Positions 5,472-29,147 are shown, counted from the first letter of the stretch. The stretch: 64,000 nucleotides of DNA from Leucobacter soli (GCA_040394175.1 JBEBSS010000005.1:32909-96908), one strand, 5' to 3'. The notes: generated by a model from the letters alone, not told the origin. Numbers and translations are program-made.

Positions 5472-6278
5472 ATGACCGATACTCGAATGATCGACCCCGA
5501 ACTGGTCCCCGACTACGCCGCGCTGCTCCGCCTCGACGGCAGGCTCTTCATCGTCGCAGGCGCCGGACAGGGCATCGGCAGGCAGACCGCGCACGCGCTC
5601 TCGTCCCTCGGCGCACGAGTGCTCTGCGTCGATCGCGACGCGGCGCTCGCGGAAGCGGTCGCGGCAGAGGTCGGAGGAATCGCCCACGTCGCGGACATCA
5701 CGGATCGCCGTGCAGTCGAGGGCGTTCTGGAGCGGGCCGCGCAGGAAGGGAACCTGCGGGGAATCGTCGACATCGTGGGAATCGCTCCCTTCGACGATCT
5801 CGTCGACGTGAGCGACGAGCACTGGGAGCAGGCGATGACCGTCAACGCCAAGCACATGCTGCTGCTGACCAGCCTGGGCGGGAAGGCGCTCGCGGCGAAC
5901 GGCGGCGGCTCGATCACGATGATCGGCTCCGTGAGCGGTATGTTCGCAGCGGAACGACACTCCGTGTACGGAATGGCGAAGGCCGGCGTGATCGCGCTCG
6001 CCAAATCCGCCGCCTCTGAGCTCGGCTCCTCCGGGGTGCGCGTCAATACGGTGTCCCCCGGCATCGTGTGGACCACACGAATCGCAGGACTCATCGGAGA
6101 CGACCGACGCGCGGAATACGACGCGCTCGCTCCGCTCGGGAGCGTTGCGTTCCCGTCTGACATCGCGTCTGCCGTGCTGTTCCTGAGCTCCGACCTCGCA
6201 CGGGACATCACCGGACACAATCTGGTCGTCGACGGCGGCTCATCGATCAAGTCTCCGCTCAACACGGCTGCGATCTGA
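5472..6278 (+). CDS. SDR-family oxidoreductase
   Basis: GAGQGIG, YGMAK, 'RVNTVSPG', 'ITGHNLVVDGG'; start moved to ATG 5472 after GGAG. Confidence 0.9.
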   Translation: MTDTRMIDPELVPDYAALLRLDGRLFIVAGAGQGIGRQTAHALSSLGARVLCVDRDAALAEAVAAEVGGIAHVADITDRRAVEGVLERAAQEGNLRGIVDIVGIAPFDDLVDVSDEHWEQAMTVNAKHMLLLTSLGGKALAANGGGSITMIGSVSGMFAAERHSVYGMAKAGVIALAKSAASELGSSGVRVNTVSPGIVWTTRIAGLIGDDRRAEYDALAPLGSVAFPSDIASAVLFLSSDLARDITGHNLVVDGGSSIKSPLNTAAI

Positions 6279-6284
6279 GTGCGC

Positions 6285-6326
6285 AGGGGCCCGGCCGCCC
6301 ACCTCTCGTGGTCAGGCCGGGCCCCT
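6285..6326. terminator. Hairpin between convergent genes (likely bidirectional terminator)
   Basis: 12-bp perfect inverted repeat AGGGGCCCGGCC (6285-6296) / GGCCGGGCCCCT (6315-6326). Confidence 0.6.
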
Positions 6327-6365
6327 CGTCCGAACCGGAACTTCAGCGCCACCTCGGCGCTCGAA

Positions 6366-8420
6366 TCAGCTCGCCGAAGCGGCCTGTGCGGATTCCTTCT
6401 CGCGCTTGCGCAATTCCTTCTCGTGGATCGGCCACGTCCCCGCCGCGATCTGAGCGTCTACGTAGGCCTGCGCCTCCTGCTGCCGTTCGGCCTCGATGCC
6501 CGTGGCGATCTCGGCGCGCAGCAGCTCAGGGGTCAGTTCGAATGCATCCACGAGATCGAGCGCCTGCTCCCGAATGCGCCCGATCAAGCGATCGATGTAT
6601 GCGGTCACCGCCTCGGCACGGGCGCCGGAGAGCCTTCCGTTGATGAGGTACCACTCGAGATGCTTCTCGATCAGGCGGAATCCGAAGAGATCGCGCAGCC
6701 AGGTCATTACGGTGAGAGTATCGCCGTCGAATCCGGCGAGCGCCTCGGTGAAGGCCTCCCACTGCAGCAGTTCCCCGTGGGCCCGCGCCGCCTCGATCAG
6801 CTTGGCCTGCTGCGTGTTGAACGCGTCCGCGTTCGCGACGGCGCGGTCTTCCCGGGCTACCCCCTTAGTCGCTTCTCGCAGTGCCATCGCCACCTGGGAG
6901 ACCATGGTTTCGACCCGGTCGGTCAGCAGAGTGCGCTGCGATTCGGGATCCCGGATCCCCTCGACGGAGCGCGATCGCTGCCCGAGGTCGGCGATGCTCT
7001 GACCCATCTGGCGCAGGCCGAATCGAGCGGCTCCCTCGCCGATCTGGCCAGCGACGACCTTCGCGATCGCCGCGACGTCGCCATCCTTGAACTTTGCCGC
7101 GTAGTCGGTGAGCAGTCGCTTCCCGACGAGTTGCAGGAGGATGTTGTTGTCCCCCTCGAAGGTGACGTAGATATCGAGATCGGCGCGCCACCCCGTCACG
7201 CGGTTCTTCGCGATGAAGCCGGCACCGCCGGTCGCCTCCCGGACCTCCTGGAGCGTGTCGAGTGCGGCCCAGGTCGAGAGCGGCTTGAGCGCCGCTGCGA
7301 GCGTCTCGAGATCCTCGCGATTCTCGTCGGTATCGTTCGCACCGGAGAAGACCTCGTCGAACGTCTCGAGTAGACGGTGTCCCGCGAACTGCATCGCATA
7401 GGTTTCGGCGAGCAGCGGCAGCAGGCGGCGCTGATAGTGGCCGTAGTCGAGCAAGACGGTGTCCCGGCCGTCCGGCCCCGGGAACTGGCGGCGCTCGCTG
7501 CTATAGCGCACCGCGATCGCGAGCGCTCCCTTCATCGCGTTGACTGCGGCCCCGTCGAGCGAGACGCGTCCCTGCACGAGGGTGCCGATCATGGTGAAGA
7601 AGCGGCGCCCCGGGCTCGCGATGTGCGACGAGTAGGTGCCGTCCGGGTCGACATTGCCGTACCGGTTGAGCAGATTCGTGCGCGGGATGCGCACCTGGGT
7701 GAAGTGGAGCCGGCCGTTGTCGATGCCGTTGAGCCCGCCCTTCACGCCGTCGTCTTCGCTTCCCACCCCGGGCATCATCGTGCCGTCGGGGGTGCGAATC
7801 GGCACGAAGAAGGCGTGCACACCGTGGTTCACTCCGCGGGTGATGAGCTGCGCGAAGACGACGGCGGCCTGGCCGTGCAGTGCGGCGTTGCCGAGGTATT
7901 CCTTCCACGCACCCGTGAAGGGCGTGTGGATCACGAACTCCTCGGCGTCCGGATCGTAGGTCGCCGTGGTGCCGATCGATGCGACGTCGCTGCCGTGGCC
8001 GATCTCCGTCATCGCGAACGCACCGGGCAGTTTCAGCGTCATGACATCGGGCAGCCAGGCTTCGTGGTGCGGCTCGGTGCCGAGGTGCAGGATCGCTGCG
8101 CCGAAGAGCCCCCACTGCACCCCGCTCTTGATCTGCAGCGAGGGGTCGGCGAAGACCAGTTCCTGGAATCCGGCGATATTGCCGCCATGGTTGTCGCTGC
8201 CGCCGAGAGTCTTCGGAAATGCGCGCTGGATCGCTCCCGCTTCGACGAGCAGACCCAGCTGCTCGAGCGCGCGAGCTCGATGATCGTCCATCGACTGTCC
8301 CGGGATGGTCTGGAGACGAGGATCGGAGGCAAGCGCTCGGCCAGCGAGCCGCTCCTCTTTCCACTTTCCATAGAGTGCATCTGCCACGACGGACTTGTCG
8401 ATGCGGGGCGTGGTGCTCAT
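6366..8420 (-). CDS. Acyl-CoA oxidase / acyl-CoA dehydrogenase-family protein
   Basis: 684 aa; 'FAMTEIGHGSDV', 'GLNGIDNGRL', 'FFTMIGTLVQGR', 'VTFEGDN', ACOX-type C-terminus. Confidence 0.92.
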   Translation of the reverse strand: MSTTPRIDKSVVADALYGKWKEERLAGRALASDPRLQTIPGQSMDDHRARALEQLGLLVEAGAIQRAFPKTLGGSDNHGGNIAGFQELVFADPSLQIKSGVQWGLFGAAILHLGTEPHHEAWLPDVMTLKLPGAFAMTEIGHGSDVASIGTTATYDPDAEEFVIHTPFTGAWKEYLGNAALHGQAAVVFAQLITRGVNHGVHAFFVPIRTPDGTMMPGVGSEDDGVKGGLNGIDNGRLHFTQVRIPRTNLLNRYGNVDPDGTYSSHIASPGRRFFTMIGTLVQGRVSLDGAAVNAMKGALAIAVRYSSERRQFPGPDGRDTVLLDYGHYQRRLLPLLAETYAMQFAGHRLLETFDEVFSGANDTDENREDLETLAAALKPLSTWAALDTLQEVREATGGAGFIAKNRVTGWRADLDIYVTFEGDNNILLQLVGKRLLTDYAAKFKDGDVAAIAKVVAGQIGEGAARFGLRQMGQSIADLGQRSRSVEGIRDPESQRTLLTDRVETMVSQVAMALREATKGVAREDRAVANADAFNTQQAKLIEAARAHGELLQWEAFTEALAGFDGDTLTVMTWLRDLFGFRLIEKHLEWYLINGRLSGARAEAVTAYIDRLIGRIREQALDLVDAFELTPELLRAEIATGIEAERQQEAQAYVDAQIAAGTWPIHEKELRKREKESAQAASAS

Positions 8421-14993: not shown

Positions 14994-15989
14994 ATGACCT
15001 CCGTGCCGATCTCCCTGCTCGATCTCGCCACCGTCGAATCGAATGGGGGTATTGGCGACGCGCTCGCGCACTCGGTCGACCTTGCGCAGGCGGCCGAAGC
15101 CGGCGGCTATCGGCGTGTCTGGTACGCCGAGCACCACAACATGCCGTCGATCGCATCGAGCGCCACGGCGGTGTTGATCGCACACGTGGCAGCGCGCACA
15201 CAGACCATTCGCCTGGGCGCCGGTGGCATCATGCTGCCGAACCACTCCCCACTCGTGATCGCGGAACAGTTCGGGACCCTGGCCGAGCTGCACCCTGGCC
15301 GGATCGATCTGGGGCTCGGCCGGGCGCCAGGCAGCGACATGGCCACGTTCCGTGCGCTGCGCCGCGAGCTCGCGGCGAGCGACGCATTCCCGGCGGACAT
15401 CCGCGAGCTGCAGCAGCTGCTCGGCGACGACCTTCCTCGCACCGCGGTGAATGCGTACCCCGGCCGAGGGACCCGGGTGCCTCTCTACGTGCTCGGTTCG
15501 AGCATGTTCGGCGCGAGCCTTGCCGCCCAGTTCGGGCTCCCCTACTCCTTCGCCTCGCACTTCGCGCCGCAACTGCTCACTCAGGCGGTCGCGCACTATC
15601 GCGCGAGCTATCAGCCGAGCAGTGCCCATCCGGGGCCCTACGTGATCGCTGCAGTGAACGTCGTGGCGGCGGAGAGCGACGAGGCGGCGGAGTCACTGTT
15701 CGCCCGTGCCGAACTCGACCGCGTTCGCCGCTTCCTCTCGCGGGGGCGACAGCACGAGCTCACCGCGGACGAGGCCGCCGCACTCTACGACACTCCGGCT
15801 GGAGAGCAGATCCGAGAGATGCTGCGCTACACCGCGATCGGCGGTCCGACACGGGTGCGCCAAGAGCTCGAGGCCTTCGCGCAGCACGCCGATGCCGATG
15901 AGTTGATCACGGTGCACCCCGCACCGACACCGCAAGAACGACTCACCTCGGTGAGGCTGACCGCGCCGGGGGCTCCGCCCCTCGGCTAG
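14994..15989 (+). CDS. LLM-class flavin-dependent oxidoreductase (luciferase-like, group 1)
   Basis: 'SLLDLA', 'WYAEHHNMP', '[22 protein letters not shown]', 'GLGRAPGSD'; start moved to ATG 14994. Confidence 0.92.
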
Positions 15990-17236
15990 TCCGAGGACAC
16001 GAGCGTCGCTGCGGCTTCCGACATCGCGTACACTGCGGCGAGACAGTCCCGCTCCTCCGAGAACTCCTCGATGCTGTGGCTCACTCCGGTGACGTTCCTC
16101 GCGAAGAGCATTCCCGTGGGGCAGATCTCGGCCAGCACGGCAGCATCGTGACCGGCGCCGGTGGGCAGGAGAGGCGCCTCGATCCCGGCCGCACGCAGCG
16201 CCCGTTCCAGCGTCCCGCGAAGTTCGATGTCGAAATTCACCTCTTGCGCGATCGAGTCGGTTTCGACGACGAGCCGCACCCCGTGTTCGACGGCGTAGGC
16301 CGATGCCGTGTCCGTCACGTCCGCGACCATCTGCTCGACCGTTTCCGGGTTTCCGGCACGTGCGTCGAGCCAGGCTCGTACCTCTCGAGGAATCGCGTTG
16401 GTCGCGTTGTGTTCGACCTCGACCCGGCCGACAGTGGCGACCGCACCGTGTGCTTCGGCACTCGAACGCGCCCGGAGCACGGTGTGGGCGTAGGGAATCA
16501 TCGGGTCCTTCCGAATCTCCAGCGGAGTCGTGCCCGCATGATTCGCCTCGCCGTTGAAGACCATGCGCGTCCGGCTGTGCGCCAGGACCTGAGTCGCGAT
16601 GCCGACCGCGGCATCCAGGTTCTCGAGCGCGATCCCCTGCTCTACATGGAGTTCGAGGTACTGACCGATCCTCGCGATGGCCACCTCATCGCGCCCCATG
16701 CGCGAGGTGTCGAACCCGGCCGCCTCTGCGGCGGCGCGCATGGTGACACCGTTCGCGTCGGTTCTCGCAAGCACGTCCTCGGGATCGATCGCGCCGACGA
16801 GCAACTGGCTGCCCAGGCACCCCACTCCGAAGCGGCCGCCCTCCTCTTCGAGAAATGCGACCACCGCGATCGGGCGTCGTTCGCTCAGCCCGAGCGCCTC
16901 GAGCGCGTCCACCACGAGGAACGCCGAGGCGACTCCGAGCGCTCCATCGTAGGCACCGCCTCCTGGAACACTGTCGAGATGGCTCCCCATGACCAGCGCC
17001 TGGTCCCCCGGCTGCCCCGCCCACGCCCATTGGTTGCCGTTGCGGTCGACCTCGTAGTGCATCCCTCGAGACGCGGCCTGCGCCTGGAACCACGAACGCA
17101 ACTCGGCGTCCGCCTGCGTCCAAGGCAGACGATCGTACCCGGAGCGATCCTCGCGGAGCCCGATGGGGGTCAAGTCGCCCCACATCTGCACGAACGCGCC
17201 GGCGAGGCGCGCGCGGATCGATTCTTCAAGAAACAA
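15986..17236 (-). CDS. M20-family Zn hydrolase (allantoate amidohydrolase / N-carbamoyl-amino-acid hydrolase)
   Basis: [47 protein letters not shown]; TTG start at 17236 after AAAGGGA, overlapping the RpiR stop. Confidence 0.88.
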
Positions 17237-18077
17237 AGTAATTCCCTTTCTGGGCGATCTCATCGAACTCTTCGATCTGACGCTGATTCTCCATAGGCAG
17301 AGAATCCACGAACTGATTGAGCAGCAGCATGAGCAATACGTGCGGAGCGGCCGACGAATCGAATGCGAAGTCGGTGCTGACCGGTGCGGCCAGCACCTCG
17401 TCGGCCAGTTCTGCGTAGGGTGAGAGCGTGCTGTCGGTGAGCAGCACGATCTTGATTGAGTGTGCGCGCAATTCTTCGAGCACGGTCTGCGTCTCCCTCG
17501 CATAGCGAGGCAGTGAAATGACGAGGGCAGCGCGTGCGCCGGCATTGCGCGCGCGCCAGATGCTCTCCTTCGCAGCGCTTCCGCAGTCCGTGATCTTCAC
17601 CAGATGCGGGTGGGCCTTTCCGGCGTAGAACGCGAAGAGGCTTGCGAGCGGTTCGGACACGCGCTGGCCGATCACGAGCAGCGGCCGCGAATCTGCGAGC
17701 AGTCGCGCCGAGCGTCGAAGTGACTCGAGATCACCAAGACTCTCCTGCAAACGGGACAGATTCGAAATCTCATCCTGAACGAGTCGCTGCACTGCGCTCA
17801 GCGGCTCCGGCCCCACCTCGCCGCCGTCCTGCAACGCTGCCCTCAACTCTCGCCGCATGTCGCTGTAGCGATCGAACCCGATCGCCTGTGCGAATCGGCT
17901 CATGGACGGCTGACTGACTCCGATTTGGATCGCGAGTTCATTCGCTGACAGAAAGCTGGCCTCGTGCGGATTCGCGAGCACGTATCGAGCGATTCGACGG
18001 TGGCCGGGCGACAGATGCGACGAGTGGAGTCGTTCGATCAAGCCGAGATCTTCAGTACGCATCTGTGTGTCCTTCAA
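17226..18077 (-). CDS. MurR/RpiR-family transcriptional regulator (HTH + SIS)
   Basis: 'HRRIARYVL...ELA..IGVSQPSMSRFAQAIGF..Y', SIS 'LPRYARET', 'VLLTDS..SP'. Confidence 0.92.
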   Translation of the reverse strand: MKDTQMRTEDLGLIERLHSSHLSPGHRRIARYVLANPHEASFLSANELAIQIGVSQPSMSRFAQAIGFDRYSDMRRELRAALQDGGEVGPEPLSAVQRLVQDEISNLSRLQESLGDLESLRRSARLLADSRPLLVIGQRVSEPLASLFAFYAGKAHPHLVKITDCGSAAKESIWRARNAGARAALVISLPRYARETQTVLEELRAHSIKIVLLTDSTLSPYAELADEVLAAPVSTDFAFDSSAAPHVLLMLLLNQFVDSLPMENQRQIEEFDEIAQKGNYFVS

Positions 18078-18103
18078 TTCGAGAGCCGCTGCCGATCCAG
18101 CGG

Positions 18104-18136
18104 CTCCGTGAGGCGGGAGATCTCCGCCTCACGGAG
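18104..18136. terminator. Intercistronic hairpin between SBP and RpiR genes
   Basis: 13-bp inverted repeat CTCCGTGAGGCGG / CCGCCTCACGGAG; a second 9-bp hairpin at 18083-18106 overlaps it. Confidence 0.5.
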
Positions 18137-18153
18137 TGGCTTTTGACAGTAAT

Positions 18154-19131
18154 TTAGTACGGCGTCTCCGGGTTGATCTCTGCCTTGTCGACTCCGTACG
18201 CCCCGGCGCCCCACTTGTCCAGGATCGCTGTGTAGGTTCCGTCATCGATCATCTGCTGCAGCGCCCGCTGCACCGGCTCGGCAAGTCCGTTGTCCTTGGT
18301 GAGCATGATGCCGTTCGTGCCGGGGACGAAGAGATCGCGGCCGATCACCTTGATCACTCCCGGATTGCCCTTCTCGATGTAGCTCAGCGCCAGTCCGGCT
18401 GCCCAGATCGCGTCCACGCGAGAGCTCGTGAGCGCGAGCACGGCCTCGACCTGGCTGGGGTAGGTCTGGATCGTCGCGGCGTCCTTTCCTTCTTCTACGC
18501 ACTTCTCCGATTGCGTGGTGGCTCGTTCGGCCTCGATCGTGCCCTTTCCCACACCGACGGTGAGACCGCAGATCAAGTCGAGATCGGCGCTGTCGGCCTC
18601 GAAGTCCGCCCGCACCATGAGCGCGTTCGCGCCGAGAATGTCGCTGACGAAGTCGACGATCTCTTTTCGCTCGTTCGTGACGGCTGCTGAAGACATGCCG
18701 ATGTCATAGCGATCCGCTTGCAGACCGGGGATGATGCCGTCGAAGCTGGTCACGGTGAACTCGAAATCCACTCCGATGATCTCGCCGAGCGCCTTGCCCA
18801 TGTCTGCGTGGATACCGACGACATCGCCGGTGGATGAGACGAACTCGTTGGGGGGATAGTCTGCGCTCGTCGCCACTCGCACCGCACCGGCGTCGAGGAA
18901 TGCCTGGGGCACCAGCGCGTGAATCTCGTCGTTGAGTTCTTGCTCCGGGATCACCTCTGTCGGCAATGGGATGGCTCCCGGGTCGGCCACGACCCCCGCG
19001 CCGTCCACTCCTTCCGGCGGCTCGCCGGAACTCGCGCAGGCGGCGAGCCCGAGCGCCAGCACGGCGATCCCCGTGCCCGCCAGTGCCCTTCTGAATCGCC
19101 GCCAACGCGGCTGTGACTGGATCATTTTCAC
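18154..19131 (-). CDS. Polar amino-acid ABC transporter substrate-binding lipoprotein (system A)
   Basis: Lipobox 'LAAC'; 'VATSADYPPNEF', 'FDGIIPGLQADRYD', 'DDGTY..IL.KWG'. Confidence 0.92.
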   Translation of the reverse strand: MKMIQSQPRWRRFRRALAGTGIAVLALGLAACASSGEPPEGVDGAGVVADPGAIPLPTEVIPEQELNDEIHALVPQAFLDAGAVRVATSADYPPNEFVSSTGDVVGIHADMGKALGEIIGVDFEFTVTSFDGIIPGLQADRYDIGMSSAAVTNERKEIVDFVSDILGANALMVRADFEADSADLDLICGLTVGVGKGTIEAERATTQSEKCVEEGKDAATIQTYPSQVEAVLALTSSRVDAIWAAGLALSYIEKGNPGVIKVIGRDLFVPGTNGIMLTKDNGLAEPVQRALQQMIDDGTYTAILDKWGAGAYGVDKAEINPETPY

Positions 19132-20489
19132 TCCTTCGTATTGCTGATTGCTTGGTCGGGAACTTCGTTGTGCACTCTCGCGATCGTCTCGTTCAGTTGA
19201 GCGACGAAGCTGGACTGATCGACGTGCACGAGGTTGCGCTCTCGAACGATGGGTTTGCCTGCCACCAGTACGTCCCTGATCGCCGTCGGCTGCATCGCGT
19301 ACACGATGTGCTTCTCGATCTTCGAGAGGGGCTGCAAGGAGAGATCGTCGAGGTCGAGCGCCACGCAGTCGGCCCAGAGGCCGGCTCTCAGTTCGCCGAT
19401 ATCGAGTCGGAGAATCTGGCCGTTCGTCTTGGTCCCCAGTTCGAGCGCCACCGATGCATCGATCAGGGCCTCCTGCTCAGGCACTCGGAACCGCTCGAGA
19501 AACGCGCCTGTCCGCATCTCGTCGAAGATCGACTGCCGATTGTTGATGCACCCGCCGTCGCAGCCGAGTCCGACCTTGATGCCCTGGTGCATCATCGAAG
19601 TCGTCTCAGCTCCGCGTCCCATGGTCTTGAAGGTCGGGTTGGGGCAGTGCACCACCGAGGCGCCCGCAGCGGCGATCAGCGATATCTCCTCCTCGTCCAT
19701 CGGCTCGGCGTGCACGAGGATCAAGCGGTCAGTAAGCAGCCCCTCGTCATGCAGGACTCGGACCGCGGTCTTGCCGTATTCTCGTTGGGCTCGCTGCCGT
19801 TCGGGGATGTGGTCGTGAAAGTGCATGTGCACCGGCACGTCGTAGGTCTCTGCGGCTTCGAGTGCGTAGCGGATCGACTCCAGAGAGGCCGCTTCGAACG
19901 AGTGCGGCGCGGGTTGGATCGAGACGAGCGGGTCATCGGCGAACTCCTCCGCGAGGGCTCGGAAGTTCGCGTAGGCCGTTTCCGGAGTTTCCTGGTACCG
20001 CTCAGGCGCCCCCTTGTCGCCGAGCCCTGCGTCGAAGAAGACCCTGGCGAGGACGAGCCGGATTCCCACGGATTTTGCCGCGCGGATCACGGCCCTGGCG
20101 TTGTCGTTTCCCTGGTCGTTGATGTAGAAGAAGTCCACGAACGTGGTAATTCCGCACTTCGCGGCTTCCGCGAACGCGTGCTTCGAGACGGTGTAGATGT
20201 CATCCGCGGTCAGTCGTTCGGCCGCCGGGTACATGATCTGCCAGATCGCGTCCTCCCAGCGAGTGTCGTCCATGTATCCCCGCAGCATGTGTTGGAATGC
20301 GTGACCGTGCGCATTCACCGTGCCCGGAAGCAGTGCGACGCGACCGAGGTCTTCGAGCATTCCGTCGACCGGGACTTCGTGTCGCGGCAGGATTCTGACG
20401 ATCCTGCCGTCGTCATCGATCTCCAGGGCCGCGTCGGGTCGCATCGCTCCCTCGATGTGCATGAGTGAAGCAGTGATGAAGTGTGACAT
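19128..20489 (-). CDS. Amidohydrolase-superfamily deaminase/deiminase (HutF/MTA-SAH-deaminase-like)
   Basis: NAHGHAFQ (HxH), 'APHS', 'HMHFHD', 'LVHA', 'GLGCDG', 'G.LR.G.WAD.V'. Confidence 0.88.
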   Translation of the reverse strand: MSHFITASLMHIEGAMRPDAALEIDDDGRIVRILPRHEVPVDGMLEDLGRVALLPGTVNAHGHAFQHMLRGYMDDTRWEDAIWQIMYPAAERLTADDIYTVSKHAFAEAAKCGITTFVDFFYINDQGNDNARAVIRAAKSVGIRLVLARVFFDAGLGDKGAPERYQETPETAYANFRALAEEFADDPLVSIQPAPHSFEAASLESIRYALEAAETYDVPVHMHFHDHIPERQRAQREYGKTAVRVLHDEGLLTDRLILVHAEPMDEEEISLIAAAGASVVHCPNPTFKTMGRGAETTSMMHQGIKVGLGCDGGCINNRQSIFDEMRTGAFLERFRVPEQEALIDASVALELGTKTNGQILRLDIGELRAGLWADCVALDLDDLSLQPLSKIEKHIVYAMQPTAIRDVLVAGKPIVRERNLVHVDQSSFVAQLNETIARVHNEVPDQAISNTKE

Positions 20490-20512
20490 TGATTTTCCTT
20501 TCGCAGCGTTCG

Positions 20513-21280
20513 CTACTGCACGCGTGTGAGGAACTCGATCGTTCGGGGGTGCCTGGGCGCCCCGAACACTTGCTCGGGCGGTCCCTCTTCGAGGATCATT
20601 CCGTGGTCCATGAAGACGACCTTGTCTGCGAGCTCTGCGGCGAATCCCATCTCATGGGTCACCACGATCATGGTCATTCCGCCTCCGGCGAGATCTTTCA
20701 TCACGCTCAGCACCTCGCCCACGAGTTCCGGGTCGAGCGCGGACGTCGGCTCGTCGAACAGCATGAGCTTGGGCTCCATCGCGAGCGCCCTGGCGATCGC
20801 GACTCTCTGCTGCTGCCCGCCCGAGAGCCTGCTCGGGTAGCTCTGCGCTTTGTCCTCGAGACCGACACGAGCCAGGAGCGCGTGCGCGGCTCGCTTCGCT
20901 TCGCTCCTGCCCGTGGCGCTCACCTGCACGGGTCCCTCCATCACGTTCTGCTCGATCGACAGGTGAGGGAAGAGGTTGAACCGCTGAAAGACCATGCCGA
21001 TGTGCTTTCGGCGCGTGCTGATCTCGCGATTCGGAAGTTCACGCAGTTGGCCGTCGGCGAGTTGTTCGTAGCCGACTCGTTCACCATCGACCAGCAGGTC
21101 GCCCGAGTTGATCTTCTCCAGATGATTGATGCATCGCAGAAGGGTCGATTTCCCTGAGCCGCTCGGCCCGATGATGCAGACGATCTGATTGCGCTCGACG
21201 GTCAGGTTCACGTCCCTGAGCACGATCTGAGTGCCGAACCGTTTCCACACGTGATCGATCTCGACCATCGGCGTAGTCAT
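20513..21280 (-). CDS. Amino-acid ABC transporter ATP-binding protein (system A)
   Basis: [31 protein letters not shown]; start moved to ATG 21280. Confidence 0.96.
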
Positions 21281-22233
21281 GAGTGCTCCTTCACAGCGAG
21301 TTGCTTGGCGTATCGGCGGTCGAGCCATTTGCCCATCGGACTCAGATGGGTGCTCATCGACCCTGCCGAGTACTTCCGTTCGATCAGGTACTGGAACACA
21401 CTCAGAATCGAGGTCACGATGAGGTACCAGAGACATGCCACGACGAGCAACGGAATCGTCAGGTAGTTGCTCGCATAAATGATCTGCACGGAGTACAGCA
21501 GATCGGGCATCGCCAGCACGCTGACGAGCGATGTCGCTTTGAGCATGCCGATGGTCTGGTTGCCGGTCGGCGGCAGGATCGATCGCATCGCTTGCGGCAT
21601 CACCACGCGGATGAATACTCTTCTCGCGGGCATGCCGAGCGAGGCTGCCGCTTCGCGCTGCCCCTGATCGACGGACAGGATCCCGCCTCTCACGATCTCT
21701 GCCATGTAGGCGGCTTCATTGAGCACCAAGCCGAGCGCCGCAGCCATGAAGGGCGTGATGATCGAGTTCGTCGAGGTCTCGATGCCGAAATCGGTGAACG
21801 GGATGTGCAACGAGAACTTCGGGTACAGCGCCGAGAGGTTGTACCAGAAGATCAGCTGCACGAGCAGCGGGGTACCGCGAAAGAACCAGATGTACCCGGA
21901 GGCGATCGCGTTCAACACGTAATTCTCGGAAAGACGCATCACGGCCAAGATCGCGCCGAGCACCAGCCCGAGGGTCATCGAGATGAGCGTGAGCCACAGG
22001 GTCATCAGGAGACCCTTCAGCACGTTCGCCGAGGTGAAGTAGTACCAGACCACGTCCCAGCGCATGTTGTCATTCGTGGCGAGCGACTTCACCAGCAGCG
22101 CGAGAGCGATCAGTGCGATGAGTCCCCAGATGATCCGGCCGAAACTTCGCGCAGGAAGGGGCTCCGGGCCCGGAATCGCTTGCGGCAGCCGCAGCGCACG
22201 TGTGCTCGCCGCGGGGTCACGTTCGTTGTCCAC
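21277..22233 (-). CDS. Amino-acid ABC transporter permease (system A)
   Basis: '[11 protein letters not shown]', EAA loop '[22 protein letters not shown]', 'PQAMR'. Confidence 0.96.
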
Positions 22234-22463: not shown

Positions 22464-23159
22464 TCACGATGCCTCCGCGGCACCGCCGTCCACCGTCAGG
22501 CTCGAAACGAGACGGTTCTGAATCGACTCGACGTGCGCGTGCGCTGCCGAGAAAGCCGCGTCGGCGTCTCGCGCCTTGATCGCCTCGAAGATCGCGATGT
22601 GCTCGCGCAGCGAGGAGGCCTGCCGCGATTCCGACAGGAACAGTTCCTGCCGGCTCACTTCGATCACCTCGGTGATCTTGTCGAGAAGTCGCAGCAACAT
22701 CGGATTGTGGGTGTACTGCGCGATCGATCGATGGAACAGTCGATCAAGATCCGCGAACATCTGGGGGCGCGAGACGAGCTTCATCTCCTCGATCAGTTGA
22801 TGAAGCTGATCGATATCTGCCGGATTCGCACGTTGCGCCGCGAAGGCCGCCACCGGCGGCTCGATGCAGGCCCGCAACTCCATGACCTGCACCAGACTGA
22901 GGACCTCCTCATCCAGGCTCGCCGCCAAGCTCGTCGCGTGCTTCGAATCAGCGACCTTCCGCACGTGAGTTCCCGATCCCTGCTTCCGCTCCAGCAACCC
23001 TCTGAGCTCGAGCACGCGCAGCGCCTCGCGGAGCGTATTTCTCGATACTCCCAACGTCGCGGAGAACTCGCGCTCGGGCGGGAGCCGGTCGCCCTCAACG
23101 AGTTCCCCGGACAGGATCATCCTCTCCAGCCGCTGCGCGAGCGAGTCCGGAACAGTCAT
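22464..23159 (-). CDS. GntR/FadR-family regulator (system B)
   Basis: 'GDRLPPERE....LGVSRNTLREALRVLE..GLLERKQGSGT'; FCD domain; start uncertain (ATG 23159 chosen). Confidence 0.92.
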   Translation of the reverse strand: MTVPDSLAQRLERMILSGELVEGDRLPPEREFSATLGVSRNTLREALRVLELRGLLERKQGSGTHVRKVADSKHATSLAASLDEEVLSLVQVMELRACIEPPVAAFAAQRANPADIDQLHQLIEEMKLVSRPQMFADLDRLFHRSIAQYTHNPMLLRLLDKITEVIEVSRQELFLSESRQASSLREHIAIFEAIKARDADAAFSAAHAHVESIQNRLVSSLTVDGGAAEAS

Positions 23160-23292
23160 ATGCTCGCCAACGAGCCGACCCCAAGTTCTCGGTTCTTTTT
23201 CCAACGGATGGCTCCTCTTCTGCAACGTCTCGAACCCTGCGAGGCGGCGGGTCGCATGGCTCATGCGGCAATCGAGGCTCGGTGCACCGCAG

Positions 23293-23338
23293 TTGACAAC
23301 CCAATACTAGCTAAAGTAGCGTAAATGGTCCAACCATT
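23293..23338 (+). promoter_or_regulatory. Sigma-A promoter with FadR-type operator
   Basis: TTGACA (23293-23298)-N18-TAGCGT (23317-23322), immediately followed by AATGGT-CCA-ACCATT (23324-23338), matching the FadR-family TGGT-N3-ACCA consensus. Confidence 0.75.
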
Positions 23339-23365
23339 GGACTAGCTCGATGAGGAGTTACACAC

Positions 23366-24250
23366 ATGAACGTTTCCAGCAAGAAGATCCGAAGCGCCGC
23401 GCCTGTTGGGGTCCTCCTGGCCGCGGGAAGCCTGGCACTCGCGGGATGCGCGAGCGCCGCGCCTGACAGCGGGCCCGCGCAGTCGACTGGCCAAGCGGCC
23501 CCGAGCATCACGAAACCGGCAATCATCGAGGACGGTGTGCTTTCCGTCTGTGCTGCGCTGGGGATGGGCGCGGTGCCGCTGTTCTACTTCGACGAAAGCC
23601 AAGAGCCGCAGGGCATCGAGGTCGACCTCTCCAGAGAAATCGCTGCGTCACTCGGGCTCGAGTATCGAGAAGTGGCGACTGCCTTCCCTTCCCTCGTGCC
23701 CTCGATCGAGGCCAGCCAGTGCGATACGGTCATGAGCTCGCTCTTCATTACGGAGGAGCGGGAGCAAGTGGTCGATTTCGTTCCATACCTGAAGTCGGGT
23801 TCGTCTCTGCTCGTGAAGTCGGGGGGCGATTCGCGGGTGACCGGTTTCGACTCGACGATCTGCGGAAAGAAGGTCTCGACGCCCGCAGGCTCCTCGGCCG
23901 TGCTCAGCCTCACCGATCTCAGCGCCGACTGCGAAGCAGACGGAAAAGCCGCCATCGTGCTGACCGAAGTCGACGGCGCAGCGACCGGCCGGCAGATGTT
24001 GCTGAACAGTCAGGTCGACGTCTACGCGGGCAGCACGGCGGACACGCTCTACCTTGCTGCAGAATCAGACGGCGAGCTCGAAGTCGTCGGCGAGCCCTTC
24101 GAGGTCCGCACGATCGGAGCCGCGGTCAAGAAGGGGAATACTGAGCTCGCCGACGCAATCGAAGGCGCGCTGCAGGAGTTGCGAGAGAGCGGCAAGTACG
24201 AAGAAATCCTCGACAGTGTCGGTCTGGGCGAACTGGCCTACACCGGCTAA
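23366..24250 (+). CDS. Polar amino-acid ABC transporter substrate-binding lipoprotein (system B)
   Basis: Lipobox 'LAGC'; 'F.SLVPSIEASQCD', 'ITEEREQVVDFVPY', 'ESGKY.EIL'. Confidence 0.92.
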   Translation: MNVSSKKIRSAAPVGVLLAAGSLALAGCASAAPDSGPAQSTGQAAPSITKPAIIEDGVLSVCAALGMGAVPLFYFDESQEPQGIEVDLSREIAASLGLEYREVATAFPSLVPSIEASQCDTVMSSLFITEEREQVVDFVPYLKSGSSLLVKSGGDSRVTGFDSTICGKKVSTPAGSSAVLSLTDLSADCEADGKAAIVLTEVDGAATGRQMLLNSQVDVYAGSTADTLYLAAESDGELEVVGEPFEVRTIGAAVKKGNTELADAIEGALQELRESGKYEEILDSVGLGELAYTG

Positions 24251-24291
24251 CGGAACCACCGAGCTGTTCACCCCTCAGCAAAGGAAAACTT

Positions 24292-25059
24292 GTGAGTTTC
24301 GATTGGGACTTCTTCTGGAAGAGCCTCTTCACCCCGAACACGGCGTATCTCGCAGGCTTCAGCCTGACGATTATCATCTCGATCCTGTCGATGACATTCG
24401 CCGTCGTCCTCGGGCTTCTCGTCGCGCTGGCTGGTCGCTCTCGATGGCTCGTCCCCAGAGTCGCGGCAGGGCTGTACATCTGGGTGATCAGAGGGACACC
24501 CGTGCTCGTGCAACTCGTGATCATATATCTCGGCTTCGCGGCTGCGGGGCTATTCAGATTCGAAGATCAGATCGTCTGGGGAGTGCTCATTCGCGGCGCG
24601 GTGGTGGCTGCGATCGTTGGTCTCACCATCCACGAGAGCGCATACATTTCGGAGATCATCCGTTCGGGTCTGGAATCCGTGGACCCGGGCCAGGCTGAGG
24701 CCTCCGCGGCACTCGGAATGACACCGGCTCAGTCCATGCGGTGGATCATCATCCCCCAATCCCTGAGAACCATGCTGCCTCCCTTCGGCAACGAGTTCGC
24801 CACTCTGATCAAGACGACCTCGATCCTTGCCATCATCGGAGTCAGCGAGGTCTTCCTCGTTTCCCAGTCGATCAGCTCCGTGACGTTCAAGACCTTCGAG
24901 ATCTTCATCGTGGTGGCGATCTACTATCTGATGCTCACTACCGTGTGGACACTCATCCAGAACATGCTCGAGCGTCGCCTCAATGAGAAGGTCGGGATCG
25001 TCACCTCGGAGACGCTGTTTCAACAATTCAAGAAGAACCTTTGGCAGGTGCGAGCATGA
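24292..25059 (+). CDS. Amino-acid ABC transporter permease (system B)
   Basis: GTG start; '[10 protein letters not shown]', '[21 protein letters not shown]'. Confidence 0.96.
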
Positions 25060-25841
25060 GCGTCAATCACGAGCGAGAACAGCGAATCGTCACGATCGAA
25101 GGCGTGCATAAGAGTTTCGGCGGGAATCACATCCTGCGCGACTGCAGCTTTCACGTCAACAGGGGCGAGGTCGTCGTTCTGATCGGCCCATCGGGCGCAG
25201 GCAAGACAACACTGCTCAGGACGATCAACATGCTGGAAACGATCGATTCCGGCGAAATCATCGTCGACGGGGAGAGCGTCGGATTCCGGACCTCGCAAGA
25301 CGGCCGTCAGATCAAGGCGGGGCAACGTCACATCGCCCGCCAGCGACAGCAGATCGGATTCGTGTTCCAGCATTTCAACCTCTTCCCTCATATGACCGTC
25401 CTCGAGAACATCTGCCACACCCCCACGAAGATTCTCAAGCGCGACAAGGCTGAGGTGAGGGAGCACGCCGAATGGTTGCTGGACAAAGTCGGACTTGCCC
25501 ACAAGGCAGACGCACGACCGCGCAGTCTTTCGGGCGGGCAACAGCAACGCGTCGCAATCGCAAGGGCGCTGGCGATGAAACCGAAAGTGATGCTGTTCGA
25601 CGAACCGACCAGCGCACTCGATCCCGAAATGGTCGGGGAGGTGCTGAAGGTGATGAAGGACCTCGCCGCAGCCCATATGACCATGATCGTCGTCACACAC
25701 GAAATGGGCTTCGCTCGCGAGGTGGCCGATCGAATCGTGATGATGGATCAAGGACACATCATCGAGACCGGGGCTCCGGATCGGATATTCAACGCACCCA
25801 CGCAGGAACGAACCAAGTCGTTCTTGAACAAGGTCCTGTAG
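25056..25841 (+). CDS. Amino-acid ABC transporter ATP-binding protein (system B)
   Basis: [26 protein letters not shown]; ATG 25056 overlaps the permease stop. Confidence 0.96.
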
Positions 25842-25849
25842 GGGCTCCT

Positions 25850-26806
25850 GTGCAGACCACCCCTCACCTTTCCGTTCGCACCGGCGCGCTCTTCCGCCTA
25901 CCGAATGCGTCGCTCGCCGAAATGCCCGACGGACTCGACGTCGGTGTCCTCGGCCTCCCGTTCGACATGGGAGTCCACCCGACACGAGTGGGGGCCCGCG
26001 GTGGTCCCCAGCACATCAGGAACAATTCATATCTGGTTGCCGAACAGTCTCAGACCCTCGCCATCGCCCCGTTGGAAGCGCTCAACGCAGCAGATTTCGG
26101 GGACCTGAATCTCGTACCGGGAGATATCGCCCAGGCGTATCCCGAGATCGAGTCAGCTCTGGACCTGTTCTTTCAGCGAGGCATTCGACCGCTCACCCTG
26201 GGCGGGGATGGATCCGTCACCCTCCCCATTCTCCGCTCGGCGAGGAAGGTCTTCCCGAATCTCGCCGTCCTACATTTCGACGCGCATACCGATGCGTACG
26301 AGTTCGAACCCGCGGATTCGTACACGAACGCGAATCCGTTCCTCCATGCCGCACGCGAGCGTCTCATCGATTCCGAGCGCTCGTTCCACATCGGCACGCG
26401 AAGCACCGACTTCTCCGGAGGTCCAGGACAGGTCGAGCGGGCGACGAGTCTCGGCTACCAGCTGATCCCTGCAGAAGAGTTCGACACCGCGACGGTCGCC
26501 TCGATCGGAGAGAGGATCATCGAGGCGATCGGTGATCGACCGGTCTATCTCTCCTGGGACATGGATGTCTTCGACCCGAGCTGCGCACCAGGGGTGACCA
26601 CTCCCTCCTGGGGAGGCCTCGCGGTTCGCGAAGCGCTTGCTCTGATCAGAGCACTCCACGGACTTCGATTCGTGGGTTTCGAGATCAATACCGTTTCACC
26701 CATGCACGACCACAACGGCCAAACCGCGAACCTTGCCGCACAGGTGGCACTGGAATGCCTCAAACTCTCACTCACCGATGTACTGAAGGAACAGGAAGAC
26801 CACTGA
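25850..26806 (+). CDS. Ureohydrolase (agmatinase/arginase fold), non-canonical active site
   Basis: 'GLPFD', 'GARGGP..IR', 'DFGD', GGDGSV, HFDAHTD, WDMDVFDP, 'PGVTTP..GGL'; GTG start at 25850. Confidence 0.88.
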   Translation: MQTTPHLSVRTGALFRLPNASLAEMPDGLDVGVLGLPFDMGVHPTRVGARGGPQHIRNNSYLVAEQSQTLAIAPLEALNAADFGDLNLVPGDIAQAYPEIESALDLFFQRGIRPLTLGGDGSVTLPILRSARKVFPNLAVLHFDAHTDAYEFEPADSYTNANPFLHAARERLIDSERSFHIGTRSTDFSGGPGQVERATSLGYQLIPAEEFDTATVASIGERIIEAIGDRPVYLSWDMDVFDPSCAPGVTTPSWGGLAVREALALIRALHGLRFVGFEINTVSPMHDHNGQTANLAAQVALECLKLSLTDVLKEQEDH

Positions 26807-28329
26807 TGGCCGCGATTGGCTCCATTTCGACGTCTCACCACTTGGCCACCGAAGCGGGTGCCGAGGCCTTGCGTGCCGGGGGCAACGCGCTCGATGCAGC
26901 ACTCGCCGCTGCCGCCACTCTGTGCGTCGTGTACCCCCACAATGTGGCACTCGGAGGAGACCTTGTCGCGCTGGTGCGCGATCCGTCTGGCCAGGTGCAC
27001 TTCTTGAACGCCACTGGCCCCGCACCGGCCGCTGTCGACGCGGAGGCCCTGCGAAGAACCCACGGCGAAGCTCTTCCGCTACGAGGAATCGACACGGTCA
27101 CCGTGCCGGGAGGGGTGCGCGGTTGGGATGCGCTGCACCGACTGGGCGCTCGTCTCGATTGGTCGGCTCATTTCGAGTTCGCCCGAGATCTCGCCGCACA
27201 TGGCACGCCGGTTTCCCGCTCGCTGCGAGCCGGTCTCGTTGCAGAACGTGCGGACCTCCTCGCGGATCCCGGCTCTTCGCAGGTGTTTGCTCCGGATGGT
27301 GCGCTGCTCGAGGAAGGCGATCTGCTGCGGCAACCTGCGCTGGCCGAAACGCTGCGTCGCCTGGCCGCGCAAGGCGCACGCGAGTTCTACTCGGGTGAGA
27401 CCGCGAGGAAATGGGTGAGTACGCTGCGCAAGCTCGGTTCACGCATCACCCTCGACGATACGAGCGCATTCACGCCGCGCTTCGAACCCGCGATCGAGAC
27501 TCGCTTCCGTGGCCATCGCGTCGTGACCAGCCCACCGAACACCTCCGGTTTCATCCTTTCCCGCGTACTGGATCGCATCGAAGGCGCGCCGGCCGATCCA
27601 CTCGGGAGAGGCATCGCGGAGATGGTCGAAGCAATCCACGTCGGCAATGTCATCCGAAGTGCCTTTCTCGCGGACCCCGAGCACGGGGGTATGACGGCCG
27701 ACGAGTTGGTCTCGCTCGACTACGCGGGCGAAGCGGGCGGCGTCTTCCACCCGACGGGAGATACGGTCGGACTCAGCGCGGTGAGCTCGGATGGATGGGC
27801 CGTCTCGTTCATCAACTCATTGTTCTATCGGTTCGGCTCGTGCATCCTCGACCCCGAAACCGGTGTGCTCTTTCAGAATCGGGGCACCTCGTTCTCGTTG
27901 CGCCGGGACTCTCCGAACGTCATCTCAGGCGGAAAGCGGCCCAGCCATACGCTGATGCCGGTACTCGTGTTCCGAGAGGACCAACTCGTCTACGTCCCCT
28001 CGACGATGGGCGGTGCGGGACAACCCCAGATCCATGCGCAGTTGCTGCTCAGGCTGCTCTCCGGGGAGAGCCCCGAGCAAGCAATCGACGCACCTCGATT
28101 TCTCGTCAAGGAGCCGGATACCGATCGCATCGGAGTGATCGTGGAGTCGGACCTCGATCCTCTCGCGGTCAGCGCGCTCCAAGAACGCGGGTTCTCGGTC
28201 GAGTTCGTTCCTCGGCACACCGAGCTCCTCGGGCACTCGAATGTGATCGAGATCACGAAAGACGGTTATCGAGCATCGAGTGATCCTCGCTCCGACGGGT
28301 CGGCGATCACTGTGCAGGAAACGATCTGA
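26806..28329 (+). CDS. Gamma-glutamyltransferase-family Ntn hydrolase
   Basis: 'GGNALDAALA', 'PH...LGGD', 'PPNTSG', autocatalytic Thr in 'GDTVGLSAV', 'NRG..F', 'PSHTL', 'MGG'; ATG overlaps the upstream stop. Confidence 0.9.
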   Translation: MAAIGSISTSHHLATEAGAEALRAGGNALDAALAAAATLCVVYPHNVALGGDLVALVRDPSGQVHFLNATGPAPAAVDAEALRRTHGEALPLRGIDTVTVPGGVRGWDALHRLGARLDWSAHFEFARDLAAHGTPVSRSLRAGLVAERADLLADPGSSQVFAPDGALLEEGDLLRQPALAETLRRLAAQGAREFYSGETARKWVSTLRKLGSRITLDDTSAFTPRFEPAIETRFRGHRVVTSPPNTSGFILSRVLDRIEGAPADPLGRGIAEMVEAIHVGNVIRSAFLADPEHGGMTADELVSLDYAGEAGGVFHPTGDTVGLSAVSSDGWAVSFINSLFYRFGSCILDPETGVLFQNRGTSFSLRRDSPNVISGGKRPSHTLMPVLVFREDQLVYVPSTMGGAGQPQIHAQLLLRLLSGESPEQAIDAPRFLVKEPDTDRIGVIVESDLDPLAVSALQERGFSVEFVPRHTELLGHSNVIEITKDGYRASSDPRSDGSAITVQETI

Positions 28330-28331
28330 GC

Positions 28332-29147
28332 ATGCAGCAGGAACACTCGCCGGCCGCTTCGAGAGCGGCATTCGCTCCGCTCATCGTGATAGGCATCGTC
28401 GCCGGACTGCTGTCAGGCCTGTTCGGGATCGGCGGCGGCACGCTCATCGTTCCGGCCCTCGTGCTCTGGGTCGGATTCCCTCAACGACTCGCCGCAGGGA
28501 CCTCGCTCACGGCAATCCTGCCAATGGCGATCGTTGCGGCGACGAGCTATGCCATCCAGGGAAACGTCGACTGGATGACGGCAGCGCTTCTGGCGGTGGG
28601 CATGGTAGTCGGAACCCAGCTCGGTGCCCGTTTGCTCGCCAACGCGCCGGTTGCATTTCTGCAGTGGGCCTTCATCGTATTTCTCGCAGTGGTGGTCGTC
28701 AGCCTCTGGATCGTCGTGCCGCAGCGCGACGACGTCATCGAGATGACGCCCGGAATCGGCATGCTTCTTCTCGCGAGCGGCCTCATCGTCGGGATCCTCT
28801 CCACCTTCCTCGGAGTGGGCGGAGGGGTGATCCTCGTCCCCATCCTGATGTTCTTCTTCGGTGCAAGCGACCTGATCGCGAAGGGGTCCTCCCTCGTGAT
28901 GATGATCCCCGGGTCGATATCCGGAACTCTGGCGAACGCGCGCAGAAAAAACGTCGACCTGCGTGCAGCGGCAGCCATCGGCATCGCCGGATGCGCCACC
29001 GCCCCCGTGGGCGCATTGATCGCGGGGTGGATTGACCCCCTCGCCGGCAACATCCTCTTCTCGATCTTCCTGACGTTCATCGGAGCGCAGTTGCTCCTCC
29101 GAAAGCTCAAGCGCACCAAGAAGGAGCACCGCCCGAACCGGGACTAG
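28332..29147 (+). CDS. TauE/SafE-family (sulfite exporter-like) membrane protein
   Basis: Duplicated 'G..SGLFGIGGG...VP.L' / 'STFLGVGGG...VP.L' motifs; about 8 TM. Confidence 0.9.
   Translation: MQQEHSPAASRAAFAPLIVIGIVAGLLSGLFGIGGGTLIVPALVLWVGFPQRLAAGTSLTAILPMAIVAATSYAIQGNVDWMTAALLAVGMVVGTQLGARLLANAPVAFLQWAFIVFLAVVVVSLWIVVPQRDDVIEMTPGIGMLLLASGLIVGILSTFLGVGGGVILVPILMFFFGASDLIAKGSSLVMMIPGSISGTLANARRKNVDLRAAAAIGIAGCATAPVGALIAGWIDPLAGNILFSIFLTFIGAQLLLRKLKRTKKEHRPNRD

Follow-up and report, generated by a model that had tools for sequence, protein, structure and literature searches.

A gene cluster in a 64,000-nucleotide stretch of Leucobacter soli DNA (GCA_040394175.1 JBEBSS010000005.1:32909-96908, hereafter the window) probably directs the GntR-repressed uptake of an amino-acid-like compound and its catabolism by two hydrolases. 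One of the hydrolases is an arginase-fold enzyme, in which the metal-ligand motif GGDH is changed to GGDG, and classical guanidines are probably not the substrates of the clade that it represents (the GGDG clade). The other is an N-terminal nucleophile (Ntn)-type amidohydrolase related to γ-glutamyltransferase (GGT). The initial annotation described a FadR regulator gene divergent from genes for a substrate-binding protein (SBP), a permease, an ATPase, a ureohydrolase, and a GGT-family protein, and gene calls and Pfam searches confirmed this content and order. A gene for a TauE-family protein, which begins 2 nt past the GGT-like stop codon, also belongs to the unit, which had been taken to end at 28329. 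The features are as follows (window coordinates).

22464–23264, minus strand: GntR-family regulator, FadR subfamily, with a GntR helix-turn-helix domain (Pfam, 75.6 bits) and an FCD domain (96.2 bits)
23293–23322, plus strand: predicted promoter of the importer operon, TTGACA (23293–23298), 18 nt, and TAGCGT (23317–23322; a −10 of the TAnnnT type)
23324–23338, no strand assigned: candidate operator, the perfect palindrome AATGGTccaACCATT, of the FadR/GntR type TGGTnnnACCA, directly after the −10 element
23366–24250, plus strand: SBP_bac_3 substrate-binding lipoprotein, polar amino-acid type, with an LAGC lipobox (Pfam, 99.1 bits)
24292–25059, plus strand: ABC permease, BPD_transp_1, HEQRo three-transmembrane type (Pfam, 78.7 bits; TIGR01726, 62 against a cut-off of 42.2)
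25041–25841, plus strand: ABC ATPase (Pfam ABC_tran, 136.9 bits)
25850–26806, plus strand: arginase-fold enzyme of the GGDG clade, 318 residues (PF00491, 241.5 bits against a cut-off of 22)
26806–28329, plus strand: GGT-like Ntn amidohydrolase of the YwrD/TaGGT type, 507 residues (PF01019, 363 bits against a cut-off of 27)
28332–29147, plus strand: TauE/SafE-family membrane protein, a putative anion exporter (PF01925, 179.7 bits against a cut-off of 32.6)

The canonical six metal ligands of the arginase family are His101, Asp124, His126, Asp128, Asp232, and Asp234 in rat arginase numbering. In the rat enzyme, His101 is a ligand of metal A alone, Glu277 forms a salt bridge with the guanidinium group, and His141 acts as the proton shuttle. 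We checked the corresponding residues of the window enzyme with HMMER against GbuA (3NIO), PAH (1GQ6), GpuA (3NIP), and SpeB (7LOL), which are its closest solved relatives (33–37% identity), and with MAFFT together with its 120 closest homologs (45–57% identity). Gly121 occupies the first metal-ligand position, that of His101, to give GGDG in place of the GGDH found in GbuA, PAH, and SpeB. Asn160 is located at the His141 position (NANPF versus HGT(P/T)F). In the EINTVSP sequence, which corresponds to D-x-x-E-V-S-P, Glu278 and Thr281 take the positions of the Asp residue and Glu277, respectively. The other five ligands (Asp144, His146, Asp148, Asp237, and Asp239) are present. These alignments bear out the initial annotation, in which the ureohydrolase was called non-canonical for these three substitutions with the DxHxD and DxD motifs retained; Gly, not His, is aligned at the ligand position. 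The AlphaFold2 model (pLDDT 89.5, pTM 0.91) has the arginase fold, and its best structural matches in Foldseek are PAH, the agmatinase SpeB, and GpuA (TM-scores of 0.80–0.90).

The substituted residues are strongly conserved. Gly121 is found in all of the 120 homologs, among which Asp144, His146, Asp148, Asp237, Asp239, and also Asn280 are invariant. Residue 281 is Thr in 106 homologs and Ala in 14, and the residue at the His141 position (residue 160) is Asn, Thr, Ala, Ser, or Pro across the clade. Judging from the presence of the substitutions in all 120 homologs, they are not the result of decay. Co-variation was examined in the best 150 representatives at 50% identity drawn from a library of 1.8 billion proteins, among which about 27 clusters at 50% identity were counted. 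Gly121 co-varies almost perfectly with Thr281, Asn280, Trp254, His180, and His43, and the His121 state goes with His160, Val280, and Glu281. No intermediates between the two states were found among the 150 representatives. The clade is monophyletic with respect to GbuA, PAH, and SpeB (support 100). It comprises 549 loci in species-representative genomes of Actinomycetota, Alphaproteobacteria, and Betaproteobacteria, and Bordetella, Burkholderia, and Ruegeria are among the bacteria, from soil, marine, and host-associated settings, in which it is found. In databases its members are labeled agmatinase or arginase. We found no solved structure within the clade, and a literature search, outside which most subscription journals lay, returned nothing on the clade or on the pairing of arginase-like and GGT-like proteins.

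The enzyme is very likely active, since five metal ligands and the clade-specific residue set are invariant. The concerted and invariant rewiring of the metal and substrate sites, as read from the alignments, argues for a different substrate class. The loss of Glu277, His141, and one ligand of metal A suggests that the group attacked is most likely a neutral or less basic C–N group, such as a ureido, oxy- or hydroxy-guanidino, amidine, or amide group. The initial annotation had proposed a pathway for an N-acylated or γ-glutamylated amidino compound. Its view of an uncharacterized pathway with an altered active site stands, whereas an amidino substrate has become doubtful, since the guanidinium-binding Glu and the catalytic His141 are replaced by neutral residues across the whole clade. 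Candidates to compensate for the lost residues are His43 and His180; in the AlphaFold2 model, His43 lies in a flexible, low-confidence loop following strand 1. Tentatively, the clade may even hydrolyze a neutral head group on an amino-acid-like skeleton, a reaction that would be new for this fold, using a metal center with five protein ligands or a single metal as in deacetylases. His43 and His180 would then substitute for His101 and His141, and in Leucobacter the product or the substrate of the enzyme would be handed over to the YwrD-type amidase.

The clade enzyme shares the fold, the size, the DAHxD and DxD motifs, and the GG cis-peptide motif with GbuA, PAH, GpuA, and SpeB, which are also catabolic and linked to importers. 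It differs from them in the changes of His101 to Gly, His141 to Asn, and Glu277 to Thr, in its own invariant residues (His43, His180, Trp254, and Asn280), in its position in a separate monophyletic clade, and in scores that stay under the equivalog cut-offs. The agmatinase identity was rejected on two models (TIGR01230, 165 against 174.3; NF002564, 222.1 against 302), and so was that of the formimidoylglutamase HutG (TIGR01227, 101.4 against 229.15).

The GGT-like protein has neither a signal peptide nor a lid loop and belongs to the cytoplasmic YwrD/TaGGT/BhGGT branch. Its best matches in the PDB are 2i3o and 2nlz (E about 1e-60), and the classical GGT model is not reached (TIGR00066, 258.2 against 357.85). 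Thr320 is the predicted nucleophile, aligned with the N-terminal Thr (residue 1) of the HpxW small subunit. In an alignment of 120 homologs, the GDT motif is found in 117 and the MGG sequence, the GG oxyanion motif, in all 120; the QNRGTSF and GKRPxHTLMP motifs are also conserved. The protein shares QNRG, GKRxxHT, and the Thr nucleophile with YwrD, Thermoplasma TaGGT (2I3O), and the B. halodurans "cephalosporin acylase" (2NLZ), and differs from these in that its gene stands within a conserved, importer-fed GntR–GGT–TauE trio. No physiological role has been assigned to B. subtilis YwrD (PMC8062742). The PSHTL sequence, which had been noted in place of the SSM of classical GGTs, is real. It is conserved across the YwrD/TaGGT/BhGGT branch, and is thus a branch trait and not peculiar to this gene.

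The residues that hold the substrate in classical GGT should be considered here. In E. coli GGT, Asp433, Ser462, and Ser463 hold the α-amino and α-carboxyl groups of the γ-glutamyl moiety, and the D433N variant accepts glutaryl amides (PMC8062742, from which the E. coli numbering is taken). The GKRPSHTLMP sequence of the window protein is aligned with NKRPLSSMTP of B. licheniformis GGT, and in this alignment the Asp433 equivalent is Ser and the Ser462–Ser463 pair is His-Thr. These replacements make the γ-glutamylated substrate of the initial annotation uncertain, and the alignment suggests that the accepted acyl group need not be γ-glutamyl. HpxW, the oxamate amidohydrolase (5HFT), is likewise a GGT-fold Ntn amidase that acts on a non-glutamyl amide, and the nucleophile positions are aligned. 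An HpxW-type oxamate amidase was rejected, since the similarity (E about 1e-28 to 1e-29) is far weaker than that to the YwrD/TaGGT branch; the window locus shows no purine or oxamate pathway context. An in-frame TGA is apparent in several Leucobacter homologs of the GGT-like gene. It is most likely the natural stop codon overrun by one residue, because the tblastn match is unbroken and ends at residue 503.

The control region lies between the divergent regulator and SBP genes. The TGGTnnnACCA pattern occurs twice in the 64-kb window. For comparison, we used the 11 syntenic Leucobacter and Agromyces loci that have a polar-amino-acid importer. In 10 of these 11, the operator in the form TTGGTCnnACCAA is present as a single site per about 20 kb, located in the GntR/SBP intergenic region, and TTGAC(A/G)-17/18-TAnnnT is kept at the same place ahead of the operator in 10 syntenic loci. 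Such recurrence at the same intergenic place is far beyond chance, and both elements are therefore supported by phylogenetic footprinting. The promoter goes unlisted in a strict σ70 scan, since TAGCGT as the −10 element matches the consensus at only three of six positions; we accept the predicted promoter on its conservation despite this miss. The consensus TTGACA promoter and FadR operator of the initial annotation are thus supported. The position of the operator, right after the −10 element, is compatible with repression. Further copies of TTGGTCnnACCAA outside the main intergenic region were observed in two other loci (L025:11092; L124:16965 and 17089), hinting that the GntR regulon of those genomes is larger.

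The genes downstream of the promoter are tightly packed, with junctions of 1, 2, and 4 nt within the operon, and a convergent cupredoxin gene closes the unit. The ATPase gene probably starts with the ATG at 25056, in an ATGA overlap with the stop codon of the permease gene. The arginase-like gene has a GTG start codon with an AGGGG ribosome-binding site 5 nt upstream, and its TGA stop codon shares one base with the ATG of the GGT-like gene (TGATG), an arrangement of translational coupling. An alternative start of the regulator, at the internal Met at 23159, is possible.

The combination of SBP_bac_3, the HEQRo-type permease, and the ATPase qualifies the importer as the polar amino-acid (PAAT) ABC type. 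The top PDB relatives of the SBP are Gln/Arg-type binding proteins (AncQR 4zv1 and GlnH), and its ligand class resolves as far as a Gln/Arg-like amino-acid binder. Its identity to the SBPs of the syntenic loci is only 35–42%. No component of the unit reaches an NCBIfam equivalog cut-off. The best model for the regulator is LldR (125 against 311), and the nearest equivalogs of the ATPase are EhuA (326.8 against 345.4) and TcyN (317.7 against 406). The ectoine importer EhuABCD was ruled out, as EhuB (59.1 against 190.9), EhuC (111.8 against 196.95), and EhuD (121.5 against 205.2) also score below their cut-offs, and with every equivalog score under its cut-off, ectoine, cystine, and glutamine importer identities were all rejected. 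A separate importer is located at 15986–22233 of the window ("System A"), together with an amidohydrolase resembling formimidoylglutamate deiminase (221 bits, cut-off 362); in relatives, System A is not syntenic with the GntR–importer–arginase–GGT unit, with 0 matches to it in six syntenic loci.

Gene content, the residue changes with their conservation, the promoter and operator, and the distribution of the genes are direct observations. Repression, catalysis by the enzyme, which hydrolysis comes first, and what kind of compound is the substrate are inferred from these. In the proposed mechanism, the GntR/FadR-type repressor would bind the palindrome just 3' of the −10 element, from which the substrate or a product would presumably release it. 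The PAAT-type ABC system would import an amino-acid-like nitrogen compound. This compound would then be processed by the two cytoplasmic hydrolases, the metal-dependent arginase-fold enzyme and the Thr-nucleophile GGT-like amidase, and the TauE-family protein would probably export an anionic product.

The association of the arginase-like gene with the GGT-like gene was surveyed in both directions. Among 81 Leucobacter species genomes, 59 have the GGT-like gene and seven the arginase-like gene. The GntR–GGT–TauE trio was found in 18 of the 20 GGT loci examined with flanks, and in Leucobacter and Glaciibacter the GGT-like gene always has TauE as the next gene. In five of these 18 loci, a polar-amino-acid ABC importer lies ahead of the trio with no arginase-like gene. 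In about 11, the importer ahead of the trio is of the Liv type (HAAT; Peripla_BP_6, BPD_transp_2, and two ATPases), as in most Leucobacter species (for example, L128:2238-7193, and similarly in loci L124–L126, L130–L133, and L136–L138). In Glaciibacter (L082), a peptide-type importer and an M24 peptidase stand ahead of GGT–TauE; importers of three families thus feed a single amidase core. In the GGT loci that lack the arginase-like gene, a search for its remnants found none. Since the trio occurs behind varied importers without the arginase-like gene or its remnants, GntR–GGT–TauE is, on this gene-order comparison, the conserved core in Leucobacter, to which importer and arginase-like gene are interchangeable additions.

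A GGT-like gene is near nine of the best 80 arginase-like clade loci: six in Leucobacter and Agromyces, two in Caballeronia, and one weak case. The gene order in the six Leucobacter/Agromyces loci, TauE←GGT←GntR / SBP→permease→ATPase→arginase-like, differs from that in the window. The window copy of the clade enzyme falls inside a subclade with six GGT-linked Microbacteriaceae copies. In five of the seven Leucobacter species with the arginase-like gene, it and the GGT gene are about 5 kb or less apart, with a shared divergent control region, and in one further species of the seven the GGT gene appears to be truncated. In the chromosome of Leucobacter sp. HNU (L029), the GGT-like match at about 5649–6449 is partial in an otherwise syntenic locus, possibly representing a truncated gene, and no full-length GGT-like match was found in this genome (G079) at E ≤ 1e-100. 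The two Caballeronia loci are arranged as GGT–GntR–RidA–aminotransferase / arginase-like–ABC, with a GGT 33% identical to that of the window and a class III aminotransferase. Two gene orders under one control region and the independent Caballeronia case lend moderate support to a functional link between the two enzymes, whereas the link is clearly not obligatory. The ureohydrolase–GGT coupling of the initial annotation, taken as an obligatory one, is not well supported, given nine of 80 clade loci and seven versus 59 of 81 Leucobacter genomes.

The lack of an obligatory link also bears on another explanation, in which the arginase-like and GGT-like proteins act on different substrates and their adjacency is a mosaic formed by insertion of an accessory gene into an importer/GntR/GGT/TauE locus. 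Such a mosaic would agree with the presence of the trio behind importers of the PAAT, HAAT (Liv), and peptide types where no arginase-like gene occurs, with the lack of gene remnants in those loci, and with the occurrence of the arginase-like clade mostly without a GGT-like gene. We consider it unlikely, however, as the insertion in Leucobacter and Agromyces is almost always at one locus and in two gene orders, the co-occurrence in Caballeronia is independent, and the two genes are translationally coupled in the window.

The neighborhoods of the clade in other bacteria give further clues to its function. PAAT ABC genes are found in about half of the 80 clade loci, and TRAP, TTT, or MFS genes otherwise. 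The clade gene nearly always adjoins an importer of small polar acids, often together with a second amidase (M20 or Amidohydro_1); an M20 peptidase is beside it in ten loci, mostly alphaproteobacterial. The Alcaligenaceae loci have TTT receptors, those of Bordetella and Achromobacter are arranged as IclR–arginase-like–ABC–thiamine pyrophosphate (TPP) enzyme, and one Micrococcaceae locus as GntR–Amidohydro_1–TPP–MFS–arginase-like. In Ruegeria (L068:7019-11660, and L073), the arrangement is LysR / TRAP (DctP/Q/M)–arginase-like–TauE, with TauE 17 nt past the arginase-like gene; the clade is thus accompanied by a TauE protein a second time, here without a GGT. The common theme is that a small polar acid is imported and that a second amidase or a keto-acid decarboxylation route accompanies the clade enzyme, much as in the outline of guanidino-acid catabolism, save that the hydrolase is rewired. 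The TPP proteins match models NF006052 and NF005760, which stand for uncharacterized TPP proteins or "acetolactate synthase". A taurocyamine or sulfonate pathway, with the TPP enzymes as Xsc, was rejected, as they score 237 against 676 on the Xsc model and TauE is near 10 of the 80 clade loci.

The genome itself offers a comparison within the family. The 2.8-Mb Leucobacter genome holds six arginase-family paralogs, located as follows.

C18:2662-3477: fully canonical (GGDH/HGTPF/EVSP)
C2:106703-107524
C25:32046-32861
C44:7348-8187: first His missing (GGDN)
Window 25850–26806: first His missing (GGDG), the enzyme described here
Window 49899–50672 (C5:82807-83580)

Two of the paralogs have GGDH with unusual His141 loops (NHCCP and SSCTP). 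The first His is missing in three, which have GGDG, GGDN, and GGLDS ("System C"). Given the canonical paralog in the genome, the part of housekeeping agmatinase or GbuA does not fall to the window gene.

The resemblance to guanidino-acid catabolism raises the question of whether the arginase-like protein is an ordinary guanidino ureohydrolase of the agmatinase, guanidinobutyrase, or guanidinopropionase type, with an operon that feeds on a guanidino acid and frees urea. The closest solved relatives are enzymes of this kind with the same fold, five of the six ligands are kept, and genes for a TPP-dependent decarboxylase-like protein, an aldehyde dehydrogenase, and an aminotransferase lie alongside the clade gene in the betaproteobacterial and Micrococcaceae loci. 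The arginine transaminase route ends in GbuA, and such neighbor genes resemble that route. In addition, zmARG of Zymomonas mobilis (GGDCL, 6KSY), in which the first His of GGDHS is also replaced, indicates that a changed first ligand is compatible with arginase activity (PMC6988801). In zmARG, however, the Cys still ligates the metal, the enzyme is a Mn-dependent arginase, and the other motifs are kept, whereas the Gly of the clade is unable to ligate a metal, and Glu277 and His141 are lost in concert clade-wide. With the agmatinase equivalog cut-offs missed and a canonical paralog already in the genome, we regard an ordinary ureohydrolase as quite improbable.

That the arginase-fold protein is a non-catalytic pseudoenzyme, either a scaffold or a ligand-binding or regulatory protein, is very hard to sustain. 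In its favor, the protein lacks one metal ligand as well as two residues for catalysis or substrate binding, and MfmB, the metal-free arginase-fold subunit, is a precedent (PMC10927577). In MfmB, however, several ligands are gone and the gene always sits beside that of its catalytic partner, whereas here one ligand is lost, five are invariant in all 120 homologs, a second arginase-family gene is nearby in only 1 of 73 clade loci, and the strict conservation around the active site is an enzyme-like pattern. The metformin hydrolase MfmAB/MetCaCb (8SNF, 8RYI; PMC10927577, PMC11271267) is comparable in that the arginase fold was recruited to a non-classical nitrogen compound and metal ligands were lost in MfmB. 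It is only a distant relative of the clade enzyme (E 9e-12). MfmB needs the adjacent MfmA, whereas the window protein, with five ligands, is solitary, having no second arginase-family gene and no Ni-delivery genes alongside.

Several observations weigh against the preferred interpretation, namely repressed uptake and two-hydrolase catabolism of a compound other than a classical guanidine. In zmARG, Cys replaces His at the first ligand position and the enzyme is still an ordinary Mn arginase (PMC6988801), so that a changed first ligand alone is no proof of new chemistry. A nearby GGT-like gene is missing from 71 of the 80 clade loci, the GGT link being lineage-restricted, most Leucobacter GntR–GGT–TauE loci are without the arginase-like gene, and many actinobacterial clade members are orphans in unrelated contexts. 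The window copy has a long branch (0.68), and its identity to any relative does not exceed 57%; its specificity may therefore differ from that of the rest of the clade. Neither a urease α subunit nor a urea carboxylase was found in the genome, an absence that neither supports nor excludes the release of urea.

The Ni-dependent guanidine hydrolase and the metformin hydrolase each came from a branch of the arginase superfamily annotated as "agmatinase". Once identified, the substrate of the GGDG clade would correct thousands of annotations, could expose an unrecognized route of organic-nitrogen turnover, and would reveal how much change the fold's binuclear site tolerates. The GntR–GGT–TauE trio with its importer offers a defined and regulated context for finding the function of the cytoplasmic YwrD-type GGT-like proteins. 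If the hand-over between the clade enzyme and the YwrD-type amidase is true, it would be the first physiological role for that orphan class.

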